From positions 15,243-79,242 of IMG/VR virus record IMGVR_UViG_3300027808_002177: a DNA stretch of 64,000 bases; one strand, given 5' to 3'. This document shows, one piece after another, positions 6,591 to 43,568 of the stretch. Below the pieces are notes generated by a model that did not search any database, had not been told where the DNA came from, and worked only from the letters and a program-made list of their open reading frames with translations. The position numbers were made by a program, and so were the translations under genes. This stretch comes from a virus. Lineage: Duplodnaviria > Heunggongvirae > Uroviricota > Caudoviricetes. Every line of letters begins with the position of its first letter. Position 1 is the first letter of the stretch.

Positions 6591-6736
6591 AGTCTACTCT
6601 GCGATAGAACACAATACTCTGGTGGACCACTAGAGGCAAACCTCAATGAATGCATAAATAATTCATAATACTATCTAACTACCTATACAGAAGTAGTAGT
6701 TATAGTGATTGATTAATTTAGGATTGGGGAAGCCGT

Positions 6737-7327: not shown

Positions 7328-7344
7328 CACCTGTAAACAGCATA

Positions 7345-12417: not shown

Positions 12418-12457
12418 ACTTTATTTATTATATGCGCTGTTAAAGAATTTGCGGCCA

Positions 12458-12518: not shown

Positions 12519-13151
12519 TTAGTCTTCTAATGCGTGAAGTACTTCCAAAATGTGCTCGTAATGTTTTTTACGATCAGCAAGACCAATTGTACCACCGTTG
12601 ATTCGTTTAGTAACTGTGGTGATGTCACCTTTGTCAGCCCACTCGTTTAATCGACGTGTGTTCCAGAACCAACCTGCACTTAATACTGCAACTGGGTTTT
12701 CTGCTACCGAATCTGGATCAGTTAATAAGTCCATCTCTAATGCTTTACCGCATGCAGTATAGTTGTCCTTGCCAGTTAATTGAATAACACCGCGGCCGCG
12801 ATACTTGTAACCATCACCGGAACTTTCGGCTCCGTTGCCCATACGGCCACCATATACCTTATTAGCAATCTTTTCTGGCTTACGTGCATAAGGTACTGCT
12901 GAATCTTCAGTAGGGAAATACTTTTTAAATGTACCGTTCAAACCTTTGGCACTGTAGTTCAAGTTTTCTTGTGTGGCTGCAAAGTTGCCGGACTCGTGTG
13001 CAGTTTGTGCAATAAACATGGCCATGCGTTCTGGCGTGTCAATTTCAAAGTGTTCAAATGTTTCATTTAAACCTTCTACAAACTTTTCCAAGTTGCTGCG
13101 TTTAGCTTCTGGTAAACATTCAACTAAAATATCAATATTCAATTCAATCAT
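12519..13151 (-). CDS. glycoside hydrolase family 19 (chitinase-like) endolysin
   Basis: FIAQTAHESGNF ... YKYRGRGVIQLTGKDNY are the canonical GH19 catalytic motifs. 210 aa with no targeting leader. Confidence 0.85.
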   Translation of the reverse strand: MIELNIDILVECLPEAKRSNLEKFVEGLNETFEHFEIDTPERMAMFIAQTAHESGNFAATQENLNYSAKGLNGTFKKYFPTEDSAVPYARKPEKIANKVYGGRMGNGAESSGDGYKYRGRGVIQLTGKDNYTACGKALEMDLLTDPDSVAENPVAVLSAGWFWNTRRLNEWADKGDITTVTKRINGGTIGLADRKKHYEHILEVLHALED

Positions 13152-16440: not shown

Positions 16441-19400
16441 TTATGCAGTAGGCTTGTCTTCGCCAGATACTGATAACAGAATGTTGCCCTGCTGAGCAGG
16501 ATTGTTTTTAATCATTGCAATCGCATAGGCATTTGCAGCCGCTTTGTTTGCAAAGCTCTTTGGAACACCTTTTTGCTTGTATACTTTACCCGAATCCTTG
16601 AAACGAACATAGTATGTTTCCTGCGGAGCTTGGTAAGAACGTTCTGGCTTGTCCCAACCTTCGTCATTGGCACCACCGTCTTGTTGATAAGCATAAGATT
16701 GACGCTTGCCCATATTTGCTACGCTTGAATCATAATCACGTTGACCAGCATCGCGACGATCATAACGACTTTCTTTTTGGGCAGTTGGCATAATTGGTTT
16801 AGACATCATTGCCAATGCTTTCTTAACGTTGGCAATACCTACATCCCATGCTTGTCCGGCTGCACTTTGTGCAGCACTTAGTGAATCAGCCCATATGTTT
16901 TTAAACGCCATCATAAATGCACTTTGAATTTTAATGTCGCTTGACTGCTGTTCAACATCAACTTCTTTTTGCATTACTTCGACTCTGGCTTTTGTCTCGG
17001 AATCAATGACTGCTAACTGTTTTGCTTTTTCAGCATTGAGTAACTCAAGTCTGCTTTTTCGTTCTTCAGCGTTGTCAATGTTGTCCAGCTGTTTAATATG
17101 AAGTTGATAGTCGGCTTCTAGTTTGGCTTTCTTATATTCACCTTCGGCTGTAGCATCAATAACAGCAAGTTCGTGCTTGTAACCAGCTTGTGCCATTTCT
17201 AAATCGTGCTTGCGAATATCTTCACGTTCTTTACGATCTTCAATTTCACGCTCAATTGCAACTAAACGTTCTTTGGCATCAAGTTCTAAATCTTGCTTCA
17301 TTTTAACAATAGCTAAACGTGCTTCCATATCAAGTTCCAACAACTCTTTCTGGTCCGCTTGATCTAATTCAACTTTGTTTAACAATGCCTGAATCGACAA
17401 TTCATGTTGCATTGGAACATTTTCTAAATCCAATTTATTTTGAATAGCAGTTATGTTTTGCTGATGAATTGTGTCAGGTTGTTGTGCTAATACTTTACGC
17501 ATTTCAGCCATACTTGGTGCCTGTGACACTAACTTTTCAATTTCGTAAGCCAAATACTGCGCACGTTCGTCACTGTCTGGTTCAGACGAATAGTCTTGTG
17601 CTAATTTTTGCAAACTGTTTCTGTCTCTGATGTTATTGGCTTTTGCAACCAATGCTACCTGCTTCTTCCAAATAATATTACGGTATGCATCGCTAAATTT
17701 TAAAGATTCTGGAGCTCCGTTGTTTTTGGCCAATGCTTTGTATGCTGGCAACCAATCTTCGGTATCTTCTTTCATAACAGCTACTTGAGAATTGGAAGCT
17801 GCTGGCTTTGTTGATAGTTCCTGGTATGGATTTTGAATCTCAAGAGATTTTAAAGGGCCAATGCTAATAACAGGACTGCCATTGTTGTCTTGAATCATGC
17901 GTTTGCTTGAGACGCTGACCATTGCAGTGCCATCACTCATTAGCTTTAGTACCTTGGCTTTGATAGGCATCATTTTTGAGCCGGGGAATCTATAACCAAT
18001 TATGTCGCCTGCTTTAACTTCAGCCTGCGCCACAGGTGCTTCATATGGTGGAACTGGAGGGCGCGGTGTAGTAGGCAGCGGAGTAGTAGGTGTAGCTGCT
18101 GGCTTTGCAGGCGGATTACGTCTTGCATCCATTCTTGCTCGCACATCATCTAATACACCAGCTTCAACCATTGCTGATTGCATGATGCGGGCCGCACGAC
18201 TTGCTGCTTGTTCGCGAACACCGCCACCAAAGTAATTTAAAATCTCTGTGAAACCTTCTTCAGTATTCAATGTCTTTTGCAACAATGCTTTGCTGTCTGG
18301 TTTCATCTTGTCAAACTTGGCCAGTAGTTGTTTTGCAATGTTTGGCGCAATTACTGATACTGAACCGTCGGCCAATTCAATACGAGTTGGTCTGTTGTTA
18401 TCACTGGCTTTGCGTATTTTCATTATGATATTTTGATCAGCGGCTGCTTGATCGCCGGGAGTAGCTTCATCTTCTTCTGCTTCGTCTAAGCCGTGGCCGC
18501 CTTTGATAATATCTTCTAATTCCACAGTTAATTCATGTTGAACATCTTCAAAATCTTCTTCTGGGTCAAGACCATGTTCCTGCGCAGTGGCCACAAACAT
18601 GTCATGCAGTCCCGGAATTCCTTCGTCAAACAGGTCAGTTAAAGTAACTGCACCGTTGCTGTTGTAAATTTGGTCTAGTACATACTTGGCCCAGTTAGGA
18701 GTCATTTGTTCTGCACCTTCGGCTAAATTTTCTATCACTGGCTGCATTCCTGCTTCTTGATCTAAACGTTGTGTAATCCACTCATAAGGGTCACCGTCGC
18801 GAGCTTTTTGTATACCGTAAGGCATTTCGCCTGAATCAGCATAGTGAGCATACAGTGCATCAAAGAAGTCTTGATTTTCATCAATGTCGCCGCCAGCTTT
18901 AAACTTGGCATAGTCTGCACTGTACTTGCTTAGGATACCTTCTAATGTATCGCTACCTTCAGTTAATCCTTGCGCTTTAGCAACATCAGCTTTAATTTGT
19001 TCTTTTGCTTTTTCAATGTGAGCTTGAGTAAGATTTTCACCTTGCTCTTTCCAGTATTGTAGTAAGATTCGTTGTGCAGTAGCAACATCGTTATTTGTGC
19101 GTTGCTGGCCAATGCCGCCGCCCTGAACAATGGCCTTGATCTTTTCTGGGTACGCAGTTTTGTAATTGTCTGCCCAGGAATTTGCGTCACCAGAGTCCCA
19201 ACCGTTCCACCAGGCTTCATTGAACGCTTCTGGTGGATTGCTTTGCAACATTTGTTCAACATGCTTTACCCAACCTGATACATCGCTACTACCAATTTCT
19301 TCTACGTCACCAACAAAGTCCGCAACTTCGTCAATGGCTTGACCTACCAATACTGGCCCGTAATCTTTAAGCAAGTCCACACGCTGAGTCATAATGCGTC

Positions 19401-20922
19401 GAGTGATAGCATAAGCCACTGGACTGTGCCCGTCTTCTTCTTTAATTTGTACTCCGGCTTGCTGTAATTGTTTTACTGCATCGGCATCTAAGTTAACACT
19501 ACCGTCTGCTTCTGGATCAGTGTCTAATTCAATTTGGCCGCTCTTGTTAAACTTAGCGTTAGTTGTTTTGCCTGTTGGCGCAAACTGTGTGCGTTGACTC
19601 ATGCCACCAGAAGTACCAACTGTGCCAGAACTTGGAATAGTACCAACTGTAGCATTTGGATCGCTTTCATCCATCTTGGCATAGTCTTCGTGGCCAATGT
19701 AAAAGTCAGTTTCGGGATCATAATACTTGCCTTCTTTTTTATCGTAGTAAACAACTTTACCGCTCTTGGTACTGAATGGGCCTTCTAAGCCCGGGCGCTC
19801 TTGATAGCGTTCTTTGTCGATTCCGCGAGTTACTGTATAACCTTCGCTAAAATGTCGCTTGTATGATTGTTGTCCTGCATTGTAAGCAGCAGCCGCTGGG
19901 CTACCTGGGTTATATGGGTTCTTAGATTTACCTTGGGAAGCATCACTATAACCTTTATCATGTTCTGCTTTGTTCTCGGCAGATTCTTTTACTGATTTTG
20001 TGCTCATGCCTGACGTAACAATTTTTATTGGCTGCTCGGCATATACTGTACCATCAGCACTTATTAAGGCAGCAACATCACCCATGCTTCTAATACCAAA
20101 TGCGGCAGCTGGCACTTGTATTCGTGTACCTGTAACTCCCGCTGGTACTTTAGTGAAAGGTGCCGACGGAGTAAACGTTTTACCATCAAATTGAATAGAA
20201 GCATTACCTGTAGTTTTGTCCCGTGTCATTGTTGCACGTGGTAGATTAGTACCAGCTGACTCTCTAATGCCATCTTTAACGTGCGGGTGACGTACATAAA
20301 ATACGCTGCCAGTGCTGCTGATATAGTGTGGCAGGCGTTGGCTATCAGCTGCCATGAATTCGGTTCCAGCCACAGGAATACGACGAACCTTGTTGTCCAT
20401 GCCATAGATAATGTATGACTTGCCATCTTGACTGATACGGCTTTGATCATACACTACATGTTGAGCACCAGTTGTGGTACGACCAGCGTCAGCACGAGCA
20501 CGAGCATCTGCTATTCGTTGCTTGCGTAATTGATCTTGTTCGGCGTTCCAAACTTGACGCTCTGTACTGCGTCCATATTCACGTTGACGCATCTTTTCTT
20601 TGTAGTTGGGACTAAAAATATCTGTCATGTGCTGGCCAACTGAATGATTTAAACCTGGATAGTTGGGGTTGGCGCCGCCTTGTGCTTGCGCAGAGCCCGC
20701 GCCACTCATTGCCATACCTGCTGCCAATGCAGCCGGAACAATTTTCTTGGCAACATGTTGCAACATGCTTTTGGCATCTTCGCTTAGTTCGCCTTCGATA
20801 ATCTGAACAGTATCGTAAGGACTATTGTACTTTTTAATTTGCTCAAGTACTACTCCTTCGTGTAAGCGGCTGGTAATTTGTTTAACAACTTTACCTTCAT
20901 TGATTAATCTAATGCGAATCAT
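16441..20922 (-). CDS. very large virion-associated protein (1493 aa; internal/ejection or tape-measure-like)
   Basis: Single ORF with a Pro-rich linker (PPAKPAATPTTPLPTTPRPPVPP) and a long Glu/Lys coiled-coil block (ELDAKERLVAIEREIEDRKEREDIRKH...). Many shadow ORFs lie on the other strand. Confidence 0.7.
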   Translation of the reverse strand: MIRIRLINEGKVVKQITSRLHEGVVLEQIKKYNSPYDTVQIIEGELSEDAKSMLQHVAKKIVPAALAAGMAMSGAGSAQAQGGANPNYPGLNHSVGQHMTDIFSPNYKEKMRQREYGRSTERQVWNAEQDQLRKQRIADARARADAGRTTTGAQHVVYDQSRISQDGKSYIIYGMDNKVRRIPVAGTEFMAADSQRLPHYISSTGSVFYVRHPHVKDGIRESAGTNLPRATMTRDKTTGNASIQFDGKTFTPSAPFTKVPAGVTGTRIQVPAAAFGIRSMGDVAALISADGTVYAEQPIKIVTSGMSTKSVKESAENKAEHDKGYSDASQGKSKNPYNPGSPAAAAYNAGQQSYKRHFSEGYTVTRGIDKERYQERPGLEGPFSTKSGKVVYYDKKEGKYYDPETDFYIGHEDYAKMDESDPNATVGTIPSSGTVGTSGGMSQRTQFAPTGKTTNAKFNKSGQIELDTDPEADGSVNLDADAVKQLQQAGVQIKEEDGHSPVAYAITRRIMTQRVDLLKDYGPVLVGQAIDEVADFVGDVEEIGSSDVSGWVKHVEQMLQSNPPEAFNEAWWNGWDSGDANSWADNYKTAYPEKIKAIVQGGGIGQQRTNNDVATAQRILLQYWKEQGENLTQAHIEKAKEQIKADVAKAQGLTEGSDTLEGILSKYSADYAKFKAGGDIDENQDFFDALYAHYADSGEMPYGIQKARDGDPYEWITQRLDQEAGMQPVIENLAEGAEQMTPNWAKYVLDQIYNSNGAVTLTDLFDEGIPGLHDMFVATAQEHGLDPEEDFEDVQHELTVELEDIIKGGHGLDEAEEDEATPGDQAAADQNIIMKIRKASDNNRPTRIELADGSVSVIAPNIAKQLLAKFDKMKPDSKALLQKTLNTEEGFTEILNYFGGGVREQAASRAARIMQSAMVEAGVLDDVRARMDARRNPPAKPAATPTTPLPTTPRPPVPPYEAPVAQAEVKAGDIIGYRFPGSKMMPIKAKVLKLMSDGTAMVSVSSKRMIQDNNGSPVISIGPLKSLEIQNPYQELSTKPAASNSQVAVMKEDTEDWLPAYKALAKNNGAPESLKFSDAYRNIIWKKQVALVAKANNIRDRNSLQKLAQDYSSEPDSDERAQYLAYEIEKLVSQAPSMAEMRKVLAQQPDTIHQQNITAIQNKLDLENVPMQHELSIQALLNKVELDQADQKELLELDMEARLAIVKMKQDLELDAKERLVAIEREIEDRKEREDIRKHDLEMAQAGYKHELAVIDATAEGEYKKAKLEADYQLHIKQLDNIDNAEERKSRLELLNAEKAKQLAVIDSETKARVEVMQKEVDVEQQSSDIKIQSAFMMAFKNIWADSLSAAQSAAGQAWDVGIANVKKALAMMSKPIMPTAQKESRYDRRDAGQRDYDSSVANMGKRQSYAYQQDGGANDEGWDKPERSYQAPQETYYVRFKDSGKVYKQKGVPKSFANKAAANAYAIAMIKNNPAQQGNILLSVSGEDKPTA

Positions 20923-22226
20923 TTGTATCCCTTTTTATTCTTTTCGTGAATTTCTGGCTGATCACTCGTGCCGCCAATTATCTTGTATGTCAGACCCATT
21001 CGTTTAATTTTGTCTAACATTTCTTTATATTCTTCTGCACCCTGTGCAACCAGTACAGTGTCACTGTCGTCTTGCCCAAATTCATGGGGATCAACTACTT
21101 TATTATTCCAATACGTGCCAATTTTGTACCAATCTAAGTCTCCGGGTGTATTTACTACAACTGTGTACTTGGGGTTATTCAATGTATTTTTAGCGTATCC
21201 TTTAGGGTCTGGTTCTTTTACTAAACCTTCCATCAAGCGATAATTCTGTGTGGCTTGCTCTACGACACGAATACATTCTCTAATAAAATTAGCATCTTCA
21301 TCAGTGATGCCTCGACTGCCGCGTCCGCCTTTGCGTCTTAATCTTGCTAGCTCATTGTATGCTGCCACGATAGTATTTATTGTGTTTGTTAGTTGTTTAA
21401 TGTTGTCGGCACTGCGACGGAATGCGCCACCGTGTTCTACACTTAGATCTTGTGCTAACTCTGCGGCTTCGCGACGAGCTTTGTCACGTAGAGCTTTTAA
21501 GCTATAACGGCCAGCACCACCCAACACTGCTACTTCAGTATCGCTCATTGGGTTTTCACGATCTAAACGATAGATGACATTTTGATTATCTAATACATGT
21601 GCTTCTGCCATTCCATGTTTTTTCATCAATCGACCAATTTGACTGTCTGGATTTGGTCGATTGCCAGATTTTAAAAACGCACGAATCATGCCTAGTTCTT
21701 GCTGCTTGCGTTGTGCAGACGTGTCAACAGCAGGTGCGGCTGTAGCACTAGCACTACCAGTTGATTCGGGCTCATAATACCAGCCCATACCCGGGTCATC
21801 GCTGCCTGTGCGCTTGGGGTTATCAAATTTGAAATAGGCAATTTGATCTTTATCCCAATAGCCTTTGAACTCGCCCTTGGCGTCATCCATGTCTTCACGA
21901 TCAAAATGATCTGCTTCGAATCGACCAAAGAAATCTATACTACGACTAAAATGCTCTGGCTTAGGATACTTGTATGGATCCTCGCCCCCGCCGTCATCTC
22001 CGGCACCAGGAGCAAATTCGTTTAAGGTGCCTTCAAATACACCAGTACCAATTCCATTAGGACCCGGAACGTACTTTTGTCCTACAGCGGCACGTGCGTT
22101 CTTGCGTTTTTCTTTATTGCTTCGACCACGTACAAATAGAGGATAAGCCACAGTAGCGATGTCGCTAGACGTGGTTGCTACACTGGCGTCACCATCCTCC
22201 ATCATTATTAATTCACGTAGTTTCAT
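20919..22226 (-). CDS. hypothetical protein with MKLREL N-terminal leader (435 aa)
   Basis: ATGA overlap with the upstream giant gene. N-terminal MKLRELIMMEDG resembles the leaders of 27871..28656 and 37722..38933. Confidence 0.55.
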   Translation of the reverse strand: MKLRELIMMEDGDASVATTSSDIATVAYPLFVRGRSNKEKRKNARAAVGQKYVPGPNGIGTGVFEGTLNEFAPGAGDDGGGEDPYKYPKPEHFSRSIDFFGRFEADHFDREDMDDAKGEFKGYWDKDQIAYFKFDNPKRTGSDDPGMGWYYEPESTGSASATAAPAVDTSAQRKQQELGMIRAFLKSGNRPNPDSQIGRLMKKHGMAEAHVLDNQNVIYRLDRENPMSDTEVAVLGGAGRYSLKALRDKARREAAELAQDLSVEHGGAFRRSADNIKQLTNTINTIVAAYNELARLRRKGGRGSRGITDEDANFIRECIRVVEQATQNYRLMEGLVKEPDPKGYAKNTLNNPKYTVVVNTPGDLDWYKIGTYWNNKVVDPHEFGQDDSDTVLVAQGAEEYKEMLDKIKRMGLTYKIIGGTSDQPEIHEKNKKGYK

Positions 22227-22276
22227 AGATATATTTATTGTTTTTGCACAATAACCTTCGCTCTATTTACCGTTTC

Positions 22277-22295
22277 AAAAACAGGTCCTGTTTTT
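22277..22295. promoter_or_regulatory. perfect palindrome AAAAACAGGTCCTGTTTTT in a divergent intergenic region
   Basis: Lies between the minus gene start at 22226 and the plus gene start at 22339. The related AAAAACAGGTCC core recurs at 51026. Could be a bidirectional terminator or an operator. Confidence 0.4.
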
Positions 22296-22338
22296 GATCT
22301 ATTTTAATAAATAGCAGCATAGATAAAGGATTGCCAAG

Positions 22339-22620
22339 ATGGGTGAGTTTTTCAAGTTAGTAGCAGAAGTAGGCTTCCCAATTGCAGCCGCTATTGCCGC
22401 TGGATACTTTGTGTTTTTGACACTGAAGTTCATTCTAGCTGGTGTTACTTCCAGTGTCAGTGGCTTAAAGAATATCATTGAAGCATTAGACAATCGTGTC
22501 AAAACAATGAACCATGATGTTATCCGAATCGACACCATTGTTAGCAATGCATTAGGTTTAAAGCCCGATGTATCACGTATTGCGCGAGCAGACGGTAAAA
22601 ACGATGCGAGACGCGATTAA
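22339..22620 (+). CDS. small single-pass membrane protein, paralog A
   Basis: N-terminal hydrophobic helix (FPIAAAIAAGYFVFLTLKFI). Paralogous to the 23022..23354 product: shared ...FPI.AA..GY..F...IALIDRV..L.ND.IR... Confidence 0.5.
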   Translation: MGEFFKLVAEVGFPIAAAIAAGYFVFLTLKFILAGVTSSVSGLKNIIEALDNRVKTMNHDVIRIDTIVSNALGLKPDVSRIARADGKNDARRD

Positions 22621-22814
22621 TGAAGCACTATGAATACGACTGGGATTTGTACCCAGACAGAATTATTCTAGACAAAGAATTAAACATTGATCGATTAGGC
22701 TGGCGGGCTGGCGACTACTTTAAAGTTGTCAATGTAAATGGCTGTGCGATGCTGGTTAAAGTAGATTCTCTTACTAGTCTGGTCCGCGACATTGGCGAAG
22801 ATATTAAAAAATGA
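22620..22814 (+). CDS. hypothetical small protein (64 aa)
   Basis: ATGA overlap with the upstream plus gene. Confidence 0.4.
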   Translation: MKHYEYDWDLYPDRIILDKELNIDRLGWRAGDYFKVVNVNGCAMLVKVDSLTSLVRDIGEDIKK

Positions 22815-23044
22815 TACAGTATTGTGTAATGACTCAGAACCCAGAGTTTATAAATGTGATTCGTTGGATTAAAGAACACAAAGTTAAATTTGAAGCACAT
22901 CTGAATCGCACACGCTTTTGGATTCCCGAAGGTGAAGCACACTCGGTATTTTTATTGACTTGGGGGCATGTATGCTTGCCAGTTTATGAAGATGAGGATT
23001 TATTAACAGGGCACAGAAATTATGGATTTAGCGAACTTAATTAA
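22811..23044 (+). CDS. hypothetical small protein (77 aa)
   Basis: ORF overlapping its neighbours by 4 nt. Confidence 0.4.
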   Translation: MIQYCVMTQNPEFINVIRWIKEHKVKFEAHLNRTRFWIPEGEAHSVFLLTWGHVCLPVYEDEDLLTGHRNYGFSELN

Positions 23045-23354
23045 CAAATACGGCTTCCCAATTGTGGCTGCTGGCGGCATGGGATACTTGATATTCTACG
23101 TATGGCAATGGGCAACACAGGACATTAAGCCAGTGCTAAGTGCTGCTAGTAATACGCTTATTGCGCTGATTGATCGTGTGCGTATGTTAGACAACGATTT
23201 AATACGATTAAATCAAAAGGTTGATGTTGTACTACACTTACGCGGCAAGATTATTGATGGTGAACGTGTAGTAGAACAGCAAAAAGTAGATCGCGAAGCT
23301 GATGAAAAGTTCCGCGACGCTGTTAACATTGATACTAAGCCAGTTAAGAAATAA
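23022..23354 (+). CDS. small single-pass membrane protein, paralog B
   Basis: FPIVAAGGMGYLIFYVWQW TM helix. Paralog of the 22339..22620 product. Confidence 0.5.
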   Translation: MDLANLINKYGFPIVAAGGMGYLIFYVWQWATQDIKPVLSAASNTLIALIDRVRMLDNDLIRLNQKVDVVLHLRGKIIDGERVVEQQKVDREADEKFRDAVNIDTKPVKK

Positions 23355-23727
23355 CTATCCCGTTTTGGGCGTACCCTTCAACCACTGAATCGTAATAATG
23401 CTGACTTGGCTTACAACCAGTCAGCTTTGTTCTATAGTGCGGTGTCATATAATATACCCAGGCCTGTGTTAGTTCTCCATTGTATTCTACTGACGACATA
23501 ACGCGATTGTAAAATGTTGGATACCCTTCTCGTATGTCTAGGTCTTGCAATTCATTTTCATCAATTTCCCATAATATGCCAATTGCTGTAACACCTGGCG
23601 TTTCAAATACATTGGCAAACTGTAACATTTCCCACTTGTAGTCTAATAGTACTGCTGGTCCTAATCTTTTGCTTGTCTTAGACATAGCATTGTTGTTGGT
23701 ATTCATACCATATGCAAAATATAACAC
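23344..23727 (-). CDS. gamma-glutamyl cyclotransferase / AIG2-like family protein
   Basis: N-terminal LYFAYGMNTN matches the YFAYGSNM signature. A conserved Glu lies in LDIREGYP. Size is 127 aa. Confidence 0.75.
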   Translation of the reverse strand: MLYFAYGMNTNNNAMSKTSKRLGPAVLLDYKWEMLQFANVFETPGVTAIGILWEIDENELQDLDIREGYPTFYNRVMSSVEYNGELTQAWVYYMTPHYRTKLTGCKPSQHYYDSVVEGYAQNGIVIS

Positions 23728-23728
23728 G

Positions 23729-24439
23729 TTAAACTCCTAATTTATGAATATTGTTTTGTATGTGTTCCCATACACCTTCTGGACTGCCGTCGGGAAATAC
23801 TAATTGACAACTAACTGTTACTCTCAATCCCGGACCTTGTATTACATGATGGAATCGATTGGTGCGTAAAATTGCACTTGGCGCAGACGATACTACACTG
23901 AAATCTGGGGCCGGTATATCTGCCCAATTTAGTTTATCGTCTTTGAGTTGTTCAGCACAATCGGCAAAGCAACTGATTCTCTCTTGTGTACCCAATTGTT
24001 CGTTTGCCGGAAAAATAGCAATGCCTTTATTTGGCAAATAGTTCCACCAACGTATTGCTCCGGGTTCTTCAGCCAGCTCGTAATAACTCAATCGTGCTTC
24101 AAGCATAGCAGGACCCGAAGGTGCGCGGACTCCATCGCAATGTATTACCCAACTGGTCTGACTCTTGGCACTTAAAAATAATGTCATTCGTCTTGTTTTA
24201 AGTCCAAGCGGTTTTAAGAACTCATTTGTGTTGGCAATAGTAACAGGGAAACTCTGATCGGCGTTGCCAACATTCGATAATCCGTATCCTGCACCTTCTA
24301 TTTTGTCTCTGTGCGGTACTAATGCTGTTTTAATAAAGTTCGCCTTCTCTACAGGATCTAAACGTAGAGTCAATGGAAAAAAGTAACCTGGATCGCGGGC
24401 CGGCTTTTGTGAAAAGTCAAAGTCTAATTGTTGTGTCAT
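23729..24439 (-). CDS. putative cupin/2OG-Fe(II) oxygenase-like protein (paralog 1)
   Basis: IHCDG (HxD) ... RTNRFHHVIQGPGLRVTVS (distal His plus Arg-x-Ser). Paralog of the next gene. Start re-placed at the ATG giving an ATGA overlap. Confidence 0.5.
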   Translation of the reverse strand: MTQQLDFDFSQKPARDPGYFFPLTLRLDPVEKANFIKTALVPHRDKIEGAGYGLSNVGNADQSFPVTIANTNEFLKPLGLKTRRMTLFLSAKSQTSWVIHCDGVRAPSGPAMLEARLSYYELAEEPGAIRWWNYLPNKGIAIFPANEQLGTQERISCFADCAEQLKDDKLNWADIPAPDFSVVSSAPSAILRTNRFHHVIQGPGLRVTVSCQLVFPDGSPEGVWEHIQNNIHKLGV

Positions 24440-25143
24440 TGTAGTTGATTGATATTGTTTTGAATATGTTGCCATACACCGTTTAATTCACCAGATTGGA
24501 ATGCAATACTCAAACTTAATGTAACACGCACCCCGTCTTGTTGAATAATGTGGTGTGGCAGATTGGTACGTACCACAGCACTTGGACTTGATATAGCAAT
24601 GCTAAAATTTGGAGTTGGAATTTGATCCCAAGTTATTTTTCCGCTTCGTAAGTCGCGTCTAAATGGTGGCAAACAAATAACAAACGGGTGTGCGCTTGCC
24701 TGATTTTTAAGCAGTCTGGGGGTTTTCCACCAAGGCGCATTTCCGTCGTCAACTGGAATAGTATTAGGTAACTGATCCCACCATTCGATAGAATTTTGTC
24801 CCAATGACATTTCATATAAGTTAATTCTTGCTTCTAACATTCCAATATTGCCTGCATGATCGATCATGCCATCACAGTGAATATTTTTGCCAATAATGTT
24901 ACCGCTGCTCATAAACATAGTGGGTTTGTAAACCATAAGCCCAATTGGATGTAGTACTGCGTTAACATTGTCAATGGTGCGAGCAAATTGCATTGCTAAA
25001 TTAGATCCAATGTGAGTTAGATCTGAATTAGATGTTGTAAACTGTTCAATAAGGTCATGTAATACAGTATTTGTAAAGTCGAGCTTTTCATCTGAATCAA
25101 TTTTTAAGTTTAAAGGAAAGAAGTAATTGGATTGCATCATCAT
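24436..25143 (-). CDS. putative cupin/2OG-Fe(II) oxygenase-like protein (paralog 2)
   Basis: IHCDGMIDHAG ... RTNLPHHIIQQDGVRVTLS. The shared tail is VWQHIQNNINQL versus VWEHIQNNIHKL. The track start at 25200 overlaps the cyclase gene. The internal ATG at 25143 is more plausible. Confidence 0.5.
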   Translation of the reverse strand: MMMQSNYFFPLNLKIDSDEKLDFTNTVLHDLIEQFTTSNSDLTHIGSNLAMQFARTIDNVNAVLHPIGLMVYKPTMFMSSGNIIGKNIHCDGMIDHAGNIGMLEARINLYEMSLGQNSIEWWDQLPNTIPVDDGNAPWWKTPRLLKNQASAHPFVICLPPFRRDLRSGKITWDQIPTPNFSIAISSPSAVVRTNLPHHIIQQDGVRVTLSLSIAFQSGELNGVWQHIQNNINQLQ

Positions 25144-25147
25144 GTAT

Positions 25148-34575: not shown

Positions 34576-35050
34576 ACGTACCGCTTGGTACCTTCATAAT
34601 AGTAACCTGAGAACTATCGGTTAGATTCTGGATAGTGATTACAATCATACCAGTGTCTGCACCTACGCCAAGTTTCCAAGTAATGTTATTGCCAGCAATA
34701 TCAGGAATCTCTCCGCACACTGCGCCAGCAGTTGCACTGGTGCAAGCTGGAGTACCAGCTGTTCCAAATAAGCTATCAGTTAATTGTTTTGCTAATTGCG
34801 AGTATATGCGGGCTTGTAGATTGGCAACGAACTGTGCCTGTGGATTTGTAGCAGCATCACGCTCGGCCTGCGCCTTCAATGAATCTGCTACATTTTTGTT
34901 ATTTTGCTTGCCTTGGTCTTCTAACTGTTTAATAGTTAATATGTGAGTACTGTAACCAATTCCGGAAAACGACGGGCTATTGAATCCATGTTGCAACTCG
35001 GCAGCATAGCCACAAATTGGGATTAATAGTAGTAATAGAAGTTTTTTCAT
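34565..35050 (-). CDS. csgF: curli assembly protein CsgF-like
   Basis: Signal peptide. Mature N-terminus AELQHGFNSPSFSGIGYSTH resembles CsgF GTMTFQFRNPNFGG. Lies immediately upstream of csgG and overlaps it by 11 nt. Confidence 0.7.
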   Translation of the reverse strand: MKKLLLLLLIPICGYAAELQHGFNSPSFSGIGYSTHILTIKQLEDQGKQNNKNVADSLKAQAERDAATNPQAQFVANLQARIYSQLAKQLTDSLFGTAGTPACTSATAGAVCGEIPDIAGNNITWKLGVGADTGMIVITIQNLTDSSQVTIMKVPSGTFAF

Positions 35051-35113
35051 GAATGTCCATATACAAAAGTAGAGTCATACTCAACTACTATTTATGGAAT
35101 TCACTGATTTTGG

Positions 35114-36637
35114 TTACTTCAACTCTCGATTGGTGCTAGTAACAGTCATTGCAGACTTGTCCTTAGGCACAATTTTCTTAGGCTGCGGTACTGCAACAGT
35201 AGCATCACCGTCATCTGCTATATCGGCTTCTTTGGCACCATTCTTGAGAATCTTGAAGGTAAAGTTGCCCTTACCCTGCGTACTCATATATGCTTTACTA
35301 GCATCAAGTAAAACGCCTGTAACAGTTTCGCTTGGGTATACCGCATTGAAGTTGTCAATGCTGATTGTGTCCTTGGTTTCGGATGTATTTGTGTACATCT
35401 GCACCAATGCACTGTGGTTTAAAATGTCAGACGCAGCATTGCCAAAGTTTGTATTGGCATTAACGTGAGCAGCAACTTTATAAGCAATAGCACTGATCAT
35501 GTGTTCCATTGGAATAATAACACGCATATCACGTGCCTTGCGTCCATTGTACAATGTTTCTAATGCAGTGTGGCCGGCCCAATCAATTTGATCATCGGGA
35601 CCATACTTCTTTAATGTCATTGCAAATGTAGCATCATCGGGACTGATCATTTTGTAGTCTACTGCTAGTTTTAACGGAGCACCAAAGTGGCCTTTAGCAT
35701 CAATGTCCTTTAGAATCTCAACGACTACTTTGTGCTTTTCAAGCAATACTGCGCCTTTGGGAGCAACCTTTAATTCGTTAATACTCTTTAGCAAGTTAAC
35801 AACACTTGCACTTGCACCGCTTGCACCCTTGCTTGACAACTTAATTTGCTTACCTTCGGGGCTAACCAACAAGCTGTCATATAAGCCACCTGTTACGCTA
35901 TTATTGAAACTGATAGTGCTACCTTTGTAGCCCCCGCTGCCAAAGAAGATGTCAGCAGCTTCCCCGGCATTACCTTTGATTGGCTTGTCCATTAGCAATG
36001 CCATTGGCTGTAGCATTTCGCAGAAGTAGTCGCGAAACGCTGTCATGTTTATGTTTCCCTTGGGGAATGTAATAGGAAATTTGCTGGCTTTTAAAAATGC
36101 GTTCAAAGCAACAACTTCATCGCTTCCTTGGCCAAACTTGGTAATAATTTGTCTAGAGATAGAATCAACTGTGTTGTCTTTGAACTGTGTTAATACTTCG
36201 CTGGGCTTATAGCCTGTATTTTCTTTTTGTCCTGCTTTGCTTTGGTACTTAAAGCCGCCGGGAATGTCTTTATGTTGCCAATCGTTTTGTACACGATTAG
36301 GACTGATTGTTCTGTAATAGCGTCCTAGGTAATACGCTTTCTTGTTCTCGTCAGTGAATGTAGCAATGGCAAAGGCCAACATACCAGAATTGGTATTGTT
36401 GCTCCAATGAATATTTTTACCCTTACCTTGTGCAGCAATCTCTGCTTGCATTTCTTCAGCAGAAGCAAATTGGCCGCGCTCCGGAAAGAAGTCCAAACTT
36501 TGGAATGTAATTACATCGCCTTGCGGATTCTTAAATTGCTCACCAGGAACTCGAGCCGCTAAACCACGACCCTCAATTAACACTTCAATTCTAGTTTCAA
36601 ATATATGACGTAATAACATTTTAAATCTCAACTCCAT
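35114..36637 (-). CDS. hypothetical protein (507 aa)
   Basis: Long ORF with no recognised motif. Confidence 0.5.
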   Translation of the reverse strand: MELRFKMLLRHIFETRIEVLIEGRGLAARVPGEQFKNPQGDVITFQSLDFFPERGQFASAEEMQAEIAAQGKGKNIHWSNNTNSGMLAFAIATFTDENKKAYYLGRYYRTISPNRVQNDWQHKDIPGGFKYQSKAGQKENTGYKPSEVLTQFKDNTVDSISRQIITKFGQGSDEVVALNAFLKASKFPITFPKGNINMTAFRDYFCEMLQPMALLMDKPIKGNAGEAADIFFGSGGYKGSTISFNNSVTGGLYDSLLVSPEGKQIKLSSKGASGASASVVNLLKSINELKVAPKGAVLLEKHKVVVEILKDIDAKGHFGAPLKLAVDYKMISPDDATFAMTLKKYGPDDQIDWAGHTALETLYNGRKARDMRVIIPMEHMISAIAYKVAAHVNANTNFGNAASDILNHSALVQMYTNTSETKDTISIDNFNAVYPSETVTGVLLDASKAYMSTQGKGNFTFKILKNGAKEADIADDGDATVAVPQPKKIVPKDKSAMTVTSTNRELK

Positions 36638-37436
36638 CGCGACCTAGTGTTTCTCTGGCATCTGCTAACAACGCTTCGCGTTCGGGATTATTTTCTAGTG
36701 CTGCAAGTACAGCTTCTACACTGGTTAAACTGGTACGATCCGCACCTGCTCCAAACAATAACTTGGCAATATGATCTGGATCGTCACCGTTGTCAACTAA
36801 CTTCTTAGTCGCACGATCAATTAAGCCAGTAGTTGGATTCCAAGTGAAGCCTAGTACTTTAGCAATGCTACTTAGTAGAATTTGTTTGTGGGCGCCGCGG
36901 TACTTGCTGTGCGGATCAGCAGCCATTGCAAACTTTGCAAACTCCAAATTGGGCACAAACATAAAGTCAGTTTGTACATAACCACGTTCAGGACTGCCAC
37001 CAATTGGTGTTTTAAAATGTACACTGATGCCAGACTTTCGAATGAATGCTTTTGAATCTTCACCGTGTTGTGATGTCCATTGGCTTAGCTTGGCAACCAA
37101 TTCTTCTTTGGTAACGCCTGCTGGCATACCAATATCCAAGTCGCCGCTTGTGGGAGTCTTGCCAGTAGTACCTAGCGCATGTTCAAAATGCGGGATTCCT
37201 GTAATCTTTTCAAGAAAGCGGATAGTTGGTTCTACATCAGCTTGATTGATGCGCTGTGTTAGTTCTTCGCCTTCTGCACTCTTGAAAACATTACCGCCTT
37301 CGACGATAATGGTATTGTCACCATGATAAAACTCCACGACTGTATTTGTTTCCGTATTGACACGGGCCCAACGTCCGTTTACTTGACGCAGGGATTCATA
37401 TACAGTGACTCGTGGAGTGATATCGGTTAAAAACAT
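36621..37436 (-). CDS. hypothetical protein (271 aa)
   Basis: Long ORF overlapping the downstream gene by 17 nt. Confidence 0.5.
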   Translation of the reverse strand: MFLTDITPRVTVYESLRQVNGRWARVNTETNTVVEFYHGDNTIIVEGGNVFKSAEGEELTQRINQADVEPTIRFLEKITGIPHFEHALGTTGKTPTSGDLDIGMPAGVTKEELVAKLSQWTSQHGEDSKAFIRKSGISVHFKTPIGGSPERGYVQTDFMFVPNLEFAKFAMAADPHSKYRGAHKQILLSSIAKVLGFTWNPTTGLIDRATKKLVDNGDDPDHIAKLLFGAGADRTSLTSVEAVLAALENNPEREALLADARETLGRDGVEI

Positions 37437-37438
37437 TA

Positions 37439-37630
37439 TTATGCCTTAGGAGCCTTCTTAGCACGTGGTGCTTTAGGAGCAGCCGGCTTTTTGGCACGTG
37501 GCTTCTTTTCAACTACAACTGGCGCAACTTCAGTAACTGTTTCGGCTACAACTTGCACTTCGACTTTATACGGAGCCTCGACTGCTGGTGTAGTACCAAA
37601 CCCAAATAGCTTCTTTAAAAATGATAACAT
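37439..37630 (-). CDS. small basic Lys/Ala/Pro-rich protein (histone H1/AlgP-like tail; putative DNA-binding)
   Basis: C-terminal KKPRAKKPAAPKAPRAKKAPKA repeats. 63 aa. Confidence 0.5.
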   Translation of the reverse strand: MLSFLKKLFGFGTTPAVEAPYKVEVQVVAETVTEVAPVVVEKKPRAKKPAAPKAPRAKKAPKA

Positions 37631-37721
37631 TTCTTTTCCTTTATTGATGGCTCAGAATCATCTAAAACCGTGTATTATATTTAGTTTTTTTGCTGAACTT
37701 GTAGCAGTTCAAAACGACCGC

Positions 37722-38933
37722 CTATCGCATTGCAACTTGCATGTAATCAGCAAAGTTATCTTTGCGCTGTTCTAAACCACGCATACCCGGGTTGACTTGT
37801 TTTGTAACACTAGTAGTATCTTTAAAGTTATCTACGTTTGGTTGTACACGATGCTTCCAAAACCAAACAGCAATTTTAGCCGCTGTAGCAGGATCTTCTG
37901 CTAACTCGGGATGCTTTTCCAATGGTAAGCCTAATTCTTCGCCAGCTTGCTTGTAATTCCAACGTCCTGTGATTTGAATAAATCCACGACCTTTATACTT
38001 TGCGCCGTCCCCGACTTGTTTATTACCCAGTGCTTTGGCCTTCTTTGGGGCGTATTTTGGATCATATTTGCGGAAGTCTAAGCTACCGCCAAATTCTGTT
38101 AGACGTTTAAAGTCTAGTGTTTCGTGAGCGCATTGCGCCATAAATGCAGCAAGCTCGGAACCTTGGAGTCCAGATGCTTTGGCAACTTTTAATAGTACCC
38201 CTTCGAGCGGATTGCTAGTAATTGTCTTGACATCAATTTTCTTTGGTTCTGCTTTTAATGCGGCCGGAGCCGCCGGGCTTGCTTTAGCTTGTGCAAACGT
38301 TTTTGGTGCTTCTGCTTTTTTAACTGCTGGCGCCTGTGCTACTACAGCAGTTGGCTCTTTGAAGTAATCCTGTGCCGACTGCTTGGCCATCATGCCACCC
38401 ATGCCGCCTGCGGCAATGCCACCTGCAATGGCTAAGTTAGCAACTGTATCTTTCCAGCCTTCTTCTAAGCCTTCCTCAAATAGTGGCCCAGCAACAATGT
38501 TGGTTGCTTTTTCAGCTTGTAGTCCACGTACCAATGCCGCACGAAATTCAGGAGTAATGTCACGGGCACGATAGCCACCGCGAGGGAAAATGTGTACTTC
38601 AATAGGAGCATCGCCTTCTAGCTTTTTAACGGCTGTCATACGATTGCGACCTTCGTGCCCTGCAACTTGTGCAGTCTTGGAATAGTCGCCGTCATCCCAT
38701 TCCTGCGGGATTTTAATTTCTAAGAATGGAGCACCAATGGCACCACCGTCGGCAATGTATTTTTCTAGTTCAGCACTGTGCTCTTGTCCAAGCGGAGCAG
38801 CCAGTCGTAGGAATGTGCTGGGCTTCATCATAACACGCAGACCAAAGTAGTCTACATCTTGGTTATAAGGAACTGCTCCAGCACCTTGTTGGTTGTCAAT
38901 TTTGACTTCAGATAATAGTTCACGTAAACGCAT
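37722..38933 (-). CDS. putative virion-associated lysin: N-terminal leader MRLRELL + unknown domain + Ala/Pro-rich linker + C-terminal GH19 lysozyme/chitinase domain
   Basis: The C-terminal FMAQCAHETLDF ... YKGRGFIQITGRWNY is a second GH19 catalytic domain. The linker reads AVVAQAPAVKKAEAPK... Confidence 0.75.
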   Translation of the reverse strand: MRLRELLSEVKIDNQQGAGAVPYNQDVDYFGLRVMMKPSTFLRLAAPLGQEHSAELEKYIADGGAIGAPFLEIKIPQEWDDGDYSKTAQVAGHEGRNRMTAVKKLEGDAPIEVHIFPRGGYRARDITPEFRAALVRGLQAEKATNIVAGPLFEEGLEEGWKDTVANLAIAGGIAAGGMGGMMAKQSAQDYFKEPTAVVAQAPAVKKAEAPKTFAQAKASPAAPAALKAEPKKIDVKTITSNPLEGVLLKVAKASGLQGSELAAFMAQCAHETLDFKRLTEFGGSLDFRKYDPKYAPKKAKALGNKQVGDGAKYKGRGFIQITGRWNYKQAGEELGLPLEKHPELAEDPATAAKIAVWFWKHRVQPNVDNFKDTTSVTKQVNPGMRGLEQRKDNFADYMQVAMR

Positions 38934-38969
38934 CAGATATTTACCTGATACGGTAACTACGTCCTTGGC

Positions 38970-39454: not shown

Positions 39455-39710
39455 TGGTCAGTACCCACATAAACACATCGGGCCCGTCTAAGATAACCAT
39501 ATCGCTTGCATACTTTAGTCGGGTGCTTCGATACTTTGAGCCAACTTTTTCAACCTCAACCATCTTGGGAGTAAAACGTTTTACTTGAGCAATATAAAGT
39601 CCATTGTCGCTTACTGCAACATACTGACCTTCTTTGAACTCGCGCCCCATTAAGTCATGATGCAGTTCTGTGGGCTTTACACTTTTGATAGGCTTCTTGA
39701 CTATAGTCAT
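39444..39710 (-). CDS. hypothetical protein (88 aa)
   Basis: ORF overlapping its neighbours. Confidence 0.4.
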   Translation of the reverse strand: MTIVKKPIKSVKPTELHHDLMGREFKEGQYVAVSDNGLYIAQVKRFTPKMVEVEKVGSKYRSTRLKYASDMVILDGPDVFMWVLTNGL

Positions 39711-39970
39711 TGCATACCTCCGGGCACACTTGCTCGTTCACAACGAACACCCTTGCCAAACTCATCTAAGATTTGGCGGGAATTACCTTTTTGATCAATG
39801 ATGAACTTGTAACCTTCAATGCATCTGCTTTCAGTCATGCCATTGACCCCATAGCTAATATTATTAGTGCTGGATGTACCGACTATTGCTGGAATAGCAA
39901 TCATGATTACAATTGCAACCATTACACATACAACCATCACTTCAATAAGGGTAAATCCGCGCTGTTTCAT
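39707..39970 (-). CDS. type IV pilin / pseudopilin-like protein (prepilin-type N-terminal methylation motif)
   Basis: MKQRGFTLIEVMVVCVMVAIVIMIAIPAI is a class III signal: G|F cleavage site, Glu at +5 and a hydrophobic helix. Start placed at the internal ATG 39970. Confidence 0.65.
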   Translation of the reverse strand: MKQRGFTLIEVMVVCVMVAIVIMIAIPAIVGTSSTNNISYGVNGMTESRCIEGYKFIIDQKGNSRQILDEFGKGVRCERASVPGGMQ

Positions 39971-40124
39971 AATCAGATTTGCTTTCCAAATAAACAATAA
40001 ATCTCAAACCATTTAGCAGGAGGGTTCTCAAGGAAGTAAGGATTAACACGAAATGTTATTTCCCAGTCCCTCGAGAACTGAAAATGGCGCACACCGAATC
40101 TGATGTTGAACCAAAGATTGCTCA

Positions 40125-40919
40125 TTACTTGGGCATCATCAATGCGTTGAAGTTAGAGGGCACAACAATGGTTTGAACCTTGCCGTTCTTGATACCTTCA
40201 CTAACGTTCAACATGGCCTGGGCTTGCATGAATGCAATACTTGCACCTGAGTTGTTGGCCAGTGCTGCCATTCGACGCGATTCAGCTTCAGCAGTCTTAA
40301 CTTCAACTTCTTTCTGCTTGAGTTCGTTTTTACTACGAACCAATGCGTTGGCACTTTCGACTACTGTGTCGCTAGGCACAACATTACGAATCATAACTTG
40401 GCTGATTGTAATTGCACCGTCCAACTTTTCTTCAGTCATGTTTCGCACAATTTCTTCTTGAATGAACTTTTCCATGTCATTACGCTTGTCTGCCATGTCC
40501 AAGGCTTCGTACTTACGGGCGGCTTTGTAGATAGCGTTACGAGCATTTTGAACAATGTAGTTGTACATCACATAAGTGTCGCCTTTGAACTCGGCGTGGA
40601 AGCTCTTGTTCTTGGTGCTGTACAGTTCGGCCACTTGTGCAGGATTGATGTTGTAAACAACCACAGCATCAAAGTCTTTCATTGTGCTGTTGTCAGCAGC
40701 CACCGGAGTCATATTGTCCAAGGTCACGTTAACGTCCTTGATTGGGAATGTAAGGATGCTGCCAACAATACTTTGGTTGAAAGAACCAGGCAGCAATTCG
40801 CCGCTTTGGACCTGTTTGTCAAAGCCGACTCGGACTCCAACTTCACCAGTTTCAATACGAGTACAACCAGTAGCAAGAACTGCCGCAGCCAAAATAGAGA
40901 GAGTCAAAATACGTTTCAT
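40125..40919 (-). CDS. SPFH/Band-7 (HflC/stomatin-like) domain lipoprotein
   Basis: Lipobox LATGC. GEVGVRVGFDKQVQSGELLPG ... follows the SPFH pattern. C-terminal coiled coil. AAGGTG SD upstream. Confidence 0.75.
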   Translation of the reverse strand: MKRILTLSILAAAVLATGCTRIETGEVGVRVGFDKQVQSGELLPGSFNQSIVGSILTFPIKDVNVTLDNMTPVAADNSTMKDFDAVVVYNINPAQVAELYSTKNKSFHAEFKGDTYVMYNYIVQNARNAIYKAARKYEALDMADKRNDMEKFIQEEIVRNMTEEKLDGAITISQVMIRNVVPSDTVVESANALVRSKNELKQKEVEVKTAEAESRRMAALANNSGASIAFMQAQAMLNVSEGIKNGKVQTIVVPSNFNALMMPK

Positions 40920-43527: not shown

Positions 43528-43568
43528 TTTAGTTTTTCCTTATATTGTTAACTAAGTTTACTTGGAGA

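Follow-up and report, generated by a model that had tools for sequence, protein, structure and literature searches.

A short peptide at the N-terminus of otherwise unrelated proteins was analyzed in a 64,000-nucleotide stretch of DNA from a virus of the Caudoviricetes (IMG/VR record IMGVR_UViG_3300027808_002177, positions 15,243 to 79,242; this whole stretch is called the window). The peptide, hereafter the tag, is probably a capsid-loading and processing address of the same type as the capsid-targeting sequence (CTS) of phage T4, carried by effector proteins that would be injected into the host. A probability of about 0.62 is assigned to this reading. An earlier note on the same DNA had proposed a capsid-targeting or protease-processing tag. 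The proposal is supported by the E-F-I-x-E core and hydrophobic-x-Glu ending shared with the T4 CTS, by a signal at the level of the peptide with codons free to differ between independent genes, by the gp21-family protease, gp23, and cargo located beside head genes in cultured phages, and by the presence of Atu_ph07 gp196 in a virion proteome.

Proteins 1, 2, and 3 of the window (Table 1) begin with nearly the same peptide, and their translations are as the earlier note had given them. From the amino acid composition of the window, 3.7 × 10−4 occurrences of x[LI]REL[LI] are expected among 92 N-termini, and the Poisson probability for three or more is 9 × 10−12. This pattern was picked post hoc; the margin over chance is nonetheless huge, and the tag is real. 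The whole window was also searched in six frames with M-x-[LIVM]-R-[ED]-[LIVMS]. Four matches were obtained, all four are starts of open reading frames, and no further gene with this start was detected. The description of the proteins as otherwise unrelated holds as well, since no pairwise match at E ≤ 0.01 appears in an all-against-all BLASTP comparison of proteins 1 to 4. The weaker start reported for protein 4 was described accurately; positions 1–6 of the tag are kept, and full tags are common in the family to which this protein belongs. The start codons are supported by an in-frame stop 1–12 codons upstream of three of the four tagged genes and by public gene calls with identical products of 403, 664, and 261 amino acids. 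A longer reading frame of protein 4 from a GTG at 30737 is possible; orthologues and a promoter-like element favor the ATG at 30671. In orthologues of protein 1 the tag ends in IMME, IVME, IIVE, or MMSE.

The tag was followed through approximately 200 homologues and approximately 40 related viral contigs. It is retained in the IMG/VR relatives of two window proteins. In more distant relatives the same cargo modules are found behind other modules, and the new N-termini are tagged again (MRLRQLFEAS, MRFRQIITTE, MKLSELHTII, MNLKELHSFK, and MRASEFIVEY). In the loci of the tagged lineage, a loose form of the pattern matches at 63 of 830 N-proximal methionines versus 4 of 2806 internal methionines. 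A scan of viral contigs with gp21 of Melnitz, a T4-like Methylophilales phage, recovered only marine Melnitz-like contigs, none of which overlaps the tagged contigs; these were reused as a negative control (770 kb) and provided 0 matches at 1060 N-proximal and 2 at 3714 internal methionines. BLAST sorts the 56 distinct tagged proteins into 13 or more groups. The Pfam families among them are Zeta_toxin/AAA_33, GNAT, GH19, cytidylyltransferase-like, DUF6267, DUF6321, DUF6934, and DUF7230. Database-wide, the generic form of the tag starts 61 of 87 ParB/Srx-like, 101 of 120 GNAT-like, and 56 of 120 amidoligase homologues, and several of the other starts in these three families are T4-style 10-mers or truncated gene calls.

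A profile was made from 172 distinct tags of the ParB/Srx-like and GNAT-like families and the related loci. It reads M1; R/K/L2; A/I/L3; x4; E/D5; F/L/I6; I/L/F/V7; x8; E9. The ending [LIVMF]-x-E occurs at position 8 or 9 in 138 of the 172 tags, and M1 and E9 are each at least 90% conserved in the alignment of the ParB/Srx-like family that includes protein 3 (alignment A2). Judged against this profile, the M-x-L/I-R-E-L-L/I of the window is a lineage variant of the wider metagenomic tag. Tagged homologues sit on contigs of up to 250–380 kb, and many of the carriers would therefore be jumbo phages. The neighborhoods of two ParB-like homologues, on contigs of 270–294 kb, contain further tag-like genes and no head genes. 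On the 294-kb ENA contig (L130:6568-9999), the tagged ParB/Srx-like gene starts MRARDFITE. It is preceded there by an NT5C gene (MRSIEF..., with TATAAATA 4 nucleotides before the ATG) and a GP88-family gene (MRFFEF...), with a Sec-signal Endonuclease_NS gene between these two and a GNAT gene (MIITEF...) just upstream.

The CTS of T4 is MKTYQEFIAE (PMC8442874), and residues −10 to −1 of IpII are annotated as a removed peptide in GenBank X04567.1. Targeting is set mainly by residues 4 and 7 of the CTS and processing by residues 8 and 10, and the two sets of determinants are separable (PMC9026906). The protease gp21 cuts behind the Glu of a short motif (PMC9026906, PMC5694885). The metagenomic consensus, MRAxEFIxE, has the same E-F-I-x-E core with a hydrophobic residue at P3 and Glu at P1. 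In the window, the ends LSE9, LLE8, and MME10 fit the rule of a hydrophobic P3 and Glu at P1; the tag of protein 4 does not. In the AlphaFold model for the protein 3 family (predicted local distance difference test, pLDDT, 91.7), residues 1–6 score below 50 and lie outside the predicted fold. The model suggests a detachable peptide outside the folded domain.

Cultured phages with homologues of the window cargo are only the jumbo phages RsoM2USA (ParB/Srx-like and amidoligase) and Atu_ph07 (amidoligase). The tagged ParB/Srx-like protein of RsoM2USA, ORF385, is encoded two genes from the major capsid protein ORF383 (Gp23, E = 2e-97) and near the protease ORF379 (Peptidase_S77, the gp21 family, E = 5e-24) and the portal ORF378. 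The amidoligase homologue of this phage, ORF26, starts MKLIQKLSE. Atu_ph07 has homologues of T4 gp20, gp21, gp23, and gp55 (Table S3, PMC6102473), and gp204 and gp215 represent its prohead protease, core, and shell set. The amidoligase homologue AUZ94978.1 (MRWQDISSKKLTE..., start MRWQDI) matches Amidoligase_2 at 30 bits and was identified as gp196 from gene order and mass (57.93 kDa computed, 57.94 kDa listed). Protein gp196 is encoded two genes from the portal gp198 and was found in virions from 14 unique peptides that cover 30% of its sequence (Table S5, PMC6102473). Small proteins with tag-like or I-x-E N-termini are also encoded around the portal and gp21 genes of Atu_ph07 (161865-166637). 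These proteins, gp199 (MKLTELFNPLTE), gp205 (MDFRQIRALLEG), and gp206 (MSIRKFLNIINE), were detected in virions, gp199 by one peptide, and they may be gp67/gp68-like core proteins.

The tagged proteins of the window were compared with protein families. Protein 1 has no match to a Pfam or PHROG family; by comparison with relatives, in which its modules recur behind GVAE linkers, it is a multi-module cargo protein. For proteins 1 and 2 no cultured homologue was found, and a megablast search of 20 kb against deposited phages gave no match. A GNAT fold had been assigned to protein 2. The window protein itself stays below the Pfam cut-off (15.7 versus 27 bits, E = 0.02, residues 77–125), but close homologues of its module pass it, such as P0155 at 38.5 bits. 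The assignment therefore stands for the module family and not for the window protein on its own score. In protein 3 the ParB/Srx-like module, with an invariant GHEGRNR, forms a separate tagged protein of approximately 155 amino acids in most homologues. A PDB sequence-profile search with the ParB-like family gave nothing meaningful. The Gly/Ala-rich segment that follows this module in protein 3 (amino acids 164–182) is moderately hydrophobic (Kyte-Doolittle 1.36), and the relatives in loci L036 and L038 consist only of the tag, EGWKD, the Gly/Ala-rich segment, and GH19.

The C-terminal GH19 domain claimed for protein 3 is confirmed, with 49.1 bits for PF00182 against a gathering score of 25.5 and a match to phrog_181 endolysin at E = 4e-39. 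The free endolysin at 12519..13151 is its paralogue (36% identity over 163 amino acids by BLASTP), and the GH19 domain would act as a virion-delivered peptidoglycan hydrolase. No match to protein 4 was obtained in a scan with PF12224.13; the precomputed PF12224.14 annotation lists Amidoligase_2 for an identical protein and for more than 100 protein 4 homologues. The homologues P0239, Atu_ph07 gp196, and RsoM2USA ORF26 score 30–36 bits for PF12224 against a cut-off of 22. An amidoligase with 79% identity is encoded on a contig of 294,843 bp. By the precomputed annotation and these homologues, protein 4 is assigned to the Amidoligase_2 family. Its gene ends 20 nucleotides upstream of the protein 2 gene, which is probably cotranscribed with it. 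The 1493-amino acid protein encoded next to protein 1 starts MIRIRLINE/G, in which the L-I-x-E9 ending is present and the acidic position 5 is absent. The start MIRI[RQ]L[IV]xEG is kept in all of its orthologues, several linker-like sites of the form G-x-x-E-[GSA] are present, and there are almost no cultured homologues. This protein is possibly a related cargo, although the assignment is uncertain.

A second recurrent motif, G[VT]AE[GDS], usually QGVAEG, was found 25 times in the tagged-lineage loci, where 1.6 occurrences are expected from composition, and once in the control T4-like contigs, where 2.6 are expected. It is located exactly at the module boundaries of large multidomain proteins (related loci L002-L039). 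The boundary in protein 2 reads ...KAMAWETSVAE/SSGVMFSKIMGHE...., and its second module is found elsewhere behind a canonical EGVAEG, after unrelated first modules. The boundary GVFE/GTLNEFAPG of protein 1 corresponds to QGVAES/RLNEFAPG in relatives. Modules that are fused internally keep remnants of the tag, for example NEVIE/SD. The V-A-E at P3–P1 of the linker has the same shape as the I-A-E that ends the T4 CTS, and the prohead protease may also cut the QGVAEG-type linkers. Two further linkers are present in the window gene at 13164-14849 (QGVAED at amino acid 227 and QGVVEG at amino acid 290). A tagged protein with a Zeta_toxin/AAA_33 kinase domain (L009:6445-8832) has a Tat signal (PF10518, E = 1.4e-4, amino acids 214–233) directly after an internal GVAED linker. 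If this linker were cut, an export signal would be exposed on the downstream module.

Several observations weigh against the loading of these proteins into the capsid. No gp21-family protease, gp22, gp23, or gp55 was found in the 64-kb window or the collected loci of the lineage, which together are only part of the genome. A tblastn search of the collected loci with gp20, gp21, gp22, gp23, gp55, and gp33 of Melnitz and RsoM2USA returned only TerL, on two distant contigs. The genes past the right edge of the window are tail-fiber, virion structural, ClpA-like, and deformylase genes, with no head module. Melnitz is a T4-like phage that shares a curli/cyclase module with the window, yet it has no tags. 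Neither ORF26 nor ORF385 was reported by mass spectrometry of RsoM2USA, which covered ten abundant bands only. The Atu_ph07 virions were purified only with polyethylene glycol, and their proteome includes a few clearly nonstructural proteins. Within the window, the hydrophobic pair and the Glu of the tag are missing from protein 4, and P3 of protein 1 is Met rather than Leu or Ile. The likeness to the T4 CTS covers nine residues, too short to prove homology. The cargo is not basic like the internal proteins of T4, and the amidoligase is strongly acidic. Finally, codons 2–6 are frozen at synonymous sites in close orthologues, in which later conserved residues use 2–4 codons; a nucleotide-level constraint therefore overlaps the tag in these orthologues.

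The tag could instead be a propeptide or cleavage site only, which keeps potentially toxic enzymes inactive or marks them for a phage protease, and packaging, if it takes place, would depend on other determinants. Consistent with this account, the hydrophobic-x-Glu ending is the best conserved feature of the tag, the same P3–P1 shape recurs at the internal QGVAEG linkers, and targeting can be separated from processing in T4 (PMC9026906). We nevertheless consider it improbable. Positions 2–7 (basic, aliphatic, acidic, F/L/I, and I/L) are conserved beyond the needs of a Glu site. The upstream context of the internal linkers differs (Q-G-V-A-E), and the N-terminal peptide therefore carries information beyond that of a cut site. 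The T4 equivalents of the conserved residues, at positions 4 and 7, are determinants of targeting (PMC9026906).

Still lower odds are given to recognition of the tag by another machine, such as a phage AAA+ unfoldase or protease (ClpA-like, ClpP) or a membrane or secretion route. In favor of this explanation, ClpX and ClpA recognize N-terminal degrons of comparable length. A gene for a 738-amino acid ClpA-like ATP-dependent protease (phrog_4871, E = 3e-242) is located just past the right edge of the window, on a contig 92% identical to it (L132:3980-6196, approximately 4–6 kb beyond the edge), and a CLP_protease is encoded on the related 294-kb contig. The ClpA-like gene and a peptide deformylase gene on the former contig adjoin tail-fiber and virion structural genes. 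AAA+ chaperones of jumbo phages have been suggested to move proteins into heads (Iyer et al. 2021, PMC7824862); such a loader would add to capsid loading and not replace it. The tag is charged and amphipathic, and Tat and hydrophobic segments come after internal linkers instead. Its nearest sequence match is the T4 CTS, and capsid loading agrees with the head-gene neighborhood and the virion detection in cultured relatives. A Sec or Tat signal peptide was rejected as a reading of the tag on composition, the peptide being charged and not hydrophobic.

The remaining alternative places the signal mainly in the nucleotides, as a late promoter, an initially transcribed region or leaderless start, or a recombination "cassette boundary", with the peptide as a by-product. 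In three of the four tagged window genes a TAAATA lies 4, 5, or 8 nucleotides before the ATG, and no Shine-Dalgarno sequence is present; the protein 2 gene has no adjacent TAAATA. The element of protein 3 is kept in all orthologues even where the DNA further upstream diverges. The orthologues of protein 4 have TATAAATA with a 7-nucleotide spacer to the ATG. This octamer is the consensus of the T4 late promoter, at −13 to −6 (PMC1524935). Since 13 of the 26 copies of TAAATA in the window lie within 40 nucleotides upstream of a start on the same strand, the hexamer appears to be a promoter-like signal in this genome. With a 5-nucleotide spacer and the T4 consensus at −13 to −6, transcription would therefore start on the A of the ATG, and the late mRNAs of the tagged genes would be leaderless or nearly so. 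The layout is found outside the tagged genes as well. TAAATA-type elements at 12418-12428 and 51905-51916 precede the ATG by 4–5 nucleotides in genes with neither tag nor Shine-Dalgarno sequence, and in related loci 35 of 433 untagged genes have such an element at this distance and no Shine-Dalgarno sequence. These counts suggest that late mRNAs without a leader are widespread in this phage group.

The element is separable from the tag. A TAAATA 4–5 nucleotides from the ATG is present in 22 of 52 tagged genes, 30 of the 52 are without an adjacent TAAATA, and 12 have a Shine-Dalgarno-like motif. The window genes that start at 12417 and 51904 have the same promoter-ATG layout and unrelated N-termini. 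The synonymous freeze of codons 2–6 is confined to close orthologues whose ATG abuts a late-promoter-like element. Between independent genes, each position of the tag uses several synonymous codons (R, CGA/AGA/CGT/CGC; A, GCA/GCT/GCG; F, TTC/TTT; I, ATT/ATA/ATC), and the amino acid pattern holds across the 172 distinct tags. Selection therefore acts on the peptide, and the tag is not a nucleotide element with synonymous constraint only, the outcome that the earlier note had named as refuting its proposal. The sequence TACGTGAAYTA is common to three tags. T4 ipII and ipIII have identical CTS codons and upstream sequence; identity of the nucleotides across the tag is therefore seen in the known system as well and perhaps reflects cassette exchange. 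As the sole explanation, a nucleotide signal is largely refuted and has very little probability left.

Under the capsid-loading reading, the tagged genes would be transcribed late in infection from T4-type late promoters. The first 8–10 residues (M-basic-aliphatic-x-acidic-F/L/I-I/L-x-E) would bind the scaffolding core of the prohead, and the attached cargo would be enclosed. The gp21-family prohead protease would then cut off the tag after Glu, with a hydrophobic residue at P3 and Glu at P1, and would probably also cut linkers of the type G-V-A-E/G or G-V-A-E/S, which would release ParB/Srx-like, GH19, GNAT-like, amidoligase, and further modules. The processed modules would stay inside the head and pass into the host together with the DNA. 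Core binding, cleavage at the predicted sites, packaging in this phage, and injection are steps that we infer.

A broader proposal, held tentatively and at somewhat less than even odds, is that the tag and the QGVAEG linker form a "cargo grammar" in a large group of uncultured freshwater and jumbo phages. The address would load a polyprotein, and the prohead protease would split it at the linkers. Some effectors would expose Tat- or Sec-like N-termini for re-export, and the address would often be dual-coded with an ATG-abutting late promoter and leaderless mRNAs. If this is true, sequence could directly reveal which effectors uncultured phages inject.

Proteins injected together with phage DNA are the first to act in an infection, against host defenses, in the takeover of the cell, and in the breaching of its wall. 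Such proteins are very difficult to identify in uncultured phages, and an address tag readable from sequence would mark them. The tag flags amidoligases, GNATs, ParB/Srx-like proteins, zeta-toxin-type kinases, nucleotidyltransferases, and GH19 enzymes as probable head cargo, amounting to hundreds of metagenomic proteins. The T4 CTS principle would be extended beyond T-even phages to jumbo and freshwater phages, and the tag might serve to package foreign proteins in these phages, in the way that the CTS does in T4.

The coordinates of the features are collected in Table 1, together with those of other window genes. The region 25148-35050 on the minus strand encodes a curli-type module and a CHASE2-adenylate/guanylate cyclase (25148-27199). 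It is syntenic with Melnitz and with Pelagibacter phage HTVC008M at 41–47% identity. Two tagged genes (27871-30671) are located between the cyclase gene and a curlin gene; in Melnitz the cyclase gene adjoins the curlin gene. Assignment of the window to a Melnitz-like T4-like phage (Kyanoviridae) on the basis of this module was rejected, only the module and a few small genes being shared. Three paralogous genes lie at 43129-45155, and a pair of paralogues at 23729-25200 is 36% identical. A cluster for sugar or cofactor modification occupies 4873-12417 and includes a 424-amino acid protein related to the C-terminus of the 783-amino acid protein listed in the table.

Table 1. Features of the window. 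A slash marks the position after Glu at linker-like sites.
Feature	Position	Strand	Details
Protein 1	20919..22226	minus	435 aa; N-terminus MKLRELIMMEDG
Protein 1, tag MKLRELIMME (codons 1-10)	22197..22226	minus	predicted cut after E10
Protein 1, TAAATA (within AATAAATA)	22232..22237	minus	5 nt upstream of ATG; no Shine-Dalgarno
Protein 1, linker-like GVFE/G	aa 62-66, nt 22029-22043	minus	precedes the LNEFAPG...DPYKYPKPE module
Protein 1, linker-like GMAE/A	aa 205-209, nt 21600-21614	minus	
Protein 2	27871..28656	minus	261 aa; N-terminus MLIRELLEADIK
Protein 2, tag MLIRELLE (codons 1-8)	28633..28656	minus	predicted cut after E8 (L-L-E)
Protein 2, GNAT-like module	~aa 30-130, nt 28267-28569	minus	
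Protein 2, linker SVAE/S	aa 139-142, nt 28231-28242	minus	
Protein 2, second module (SGVMFSKIMGHE...)	aa 144-261, nt 27874-28227	minus	
Protein 3	37722..38933	minus	403 aa; N-terminus MRLRELLSEVKI
Protein 3, tag MRLRELLSE (codons 1-9)	38907..38933	minus	predicted cut after E9 (L-S-E)
Protein 3, TAAATA	38938..38943	minus	4 nt upstream of ATG
Protein 3, ParB/Srx-like module	38478..38906, aa 10-152	minus	invariant GHEGRNR
Protein 3, junction	38388..38468	minus	linker-like GLEE/GWKD (aa 156-159), then Gly/Ala-rich segment
Protein 3, GH19 peptidoglycan-hydrolase domain	37725..38159, aa 259-403	minus	PF00182
Protein 4	28677..30671	minus	664 aa; N-terminus MKLRDSNPQ
Protein 4, degenerate tag MKLRDS	30654..30671	minus	tag positions 1-6 retained; hydrophobic pair and Glu gone
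Protein 4, TAAATA	30680..30685	minus	8 nt upstream of ATG
1493-aa protein	16441..20922	minus	ATG overlaps protein 1 stop (ATGA); translationally coupled
CsgF	34565-35050	minus	
CsgG	33742-34575	minus	
Curlin-repeat proteins	32893-33735 and 30688-31632	minus	
FecR-domain protein	31781-32887	minus	
Sigma70_r4/GerE protein	47811-48500		public annotation of identical contig
Papain-like Peptidase_C1	41755-42429		public annotation of identical contig
Band_7 protein	40125-40919		public annotation of identical contig
N_methyl (pilin-like) protein	39707-39997		public annotation of identical contig
Heptose-phosphate adenylyltransferase-like gene	4873-5640		
783-aa protein, UDP-glucose dehydrogenase N-terminal part	7345-9696		
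Radical-SAM protein	9693-11156		

The searchable literature contains no description of the tag consensus, of its wide occurrence in uncultured freshwater and jumbo phages, of the combination of the tag with QGVAEG linkers that replace a built-in peptidase, or of the ATG-abutting late promoters. A full-text search for MRAxEF strings or for a CTS outside T-even and phiKZ-like phages gave no prior description. Related systems are known. In phiKZ, 201phi2-1, and SPN3US, the propeptides of head and ejection proteins are processed by proteases homologous to gp21 (PMC5694885, PMC10052503). As proposed here, many internal or ejection proteins of these giant phages are loaded and then cleaved behind the Glu of short motifs (A/S/G-x-E); paralogues with identical N-termini (SPN3US gp53/gp54) and multiple cleavage sites per protein also occur. 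Their propeptides are mostly 100–270 residues long versus 8–10 here, and P3 is a small residue there but hydrophobic here, as in T4.

Polyvalent proteins of phages and conjugative elements, which include the head-packaged DdrB of phage P1 (Iyer et al. 2017, PMC5512222), resemble the cargo in their mix-and-match effector modules (ParB-like, GNAT, kinase, nucleotidyltransferase, NUDIX, and lysozyme). They are encoded with late or virion genes and are predicted to be coinjected with DNA, and the combination of a ParB-like module with a lysozyme (DdrB-ParB+lysozyme) is explicit in PMC5512222. Variable combinations of unrelated effector domains in one protein, in a late or virion gene context, are present here too. 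Pfam scans of the window proteins and of 25 tagged or linked relatives gave no match to a hub or processing domain such as the zincin-like MPTase or MuF. Here the prohead protease is predicted to do the processing, at QGVAEG linkers, in place of a built-in peptidase, and the published description of polyvalent proteins has no N-terminal address tag. The comparison suggests that the prohead protease is able to process polyvalent proteins at linkers dedicated to this purpose.

The capsid-internal protein gp16 of phage T7 has a muralytic domain. It places a peptidoglycan-degrading activity on a capsid-internal protein separate from the lysis endolysin, as is proposed here for the GH19 domain; it differs in being a lytic transglycosylase and not of the GH19 fold, and in phage morphotype and loading mechanism. 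The capsid-targeting principle has reportedly been known since the work of Mullaney and Black in 1996. In T4 and in the phages studied here, a peptide of approximately 10 residues is located at the extreme N-terminus of unrelated, diverse, and fast-evolving cargo. In T4, replacement of the Glu by Asp blocks cleavage but not loading. Tags of T4 length occur in the ParB/Srx-like family (MKTFVEYISE, MISFRQYLSE, and, in RsoM2USA ORF385, MQTFKQFLSE). The T4 genes are expressed late, as the TAAATA elements indicate at the sequence level for the tagged genes, and nucleotide identity across the tag is found between paralogous genes here as in ipII and ipIII. The metagenomic consensus is one residue shorter (MRAxEFIxE versus MKTYQEFIAE). 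The cargo here is large and often consists of multi-module enzymes, whereas that of T4 is small and basic. QGVAEG-type linkers join the modules, and the promoter often abuts the ATG. The carriers, known from sequence, are uncultured freshwater phages and jumbo phages of the RsoM2USA and Atu_ph07 type rather than Tevenvirinae.

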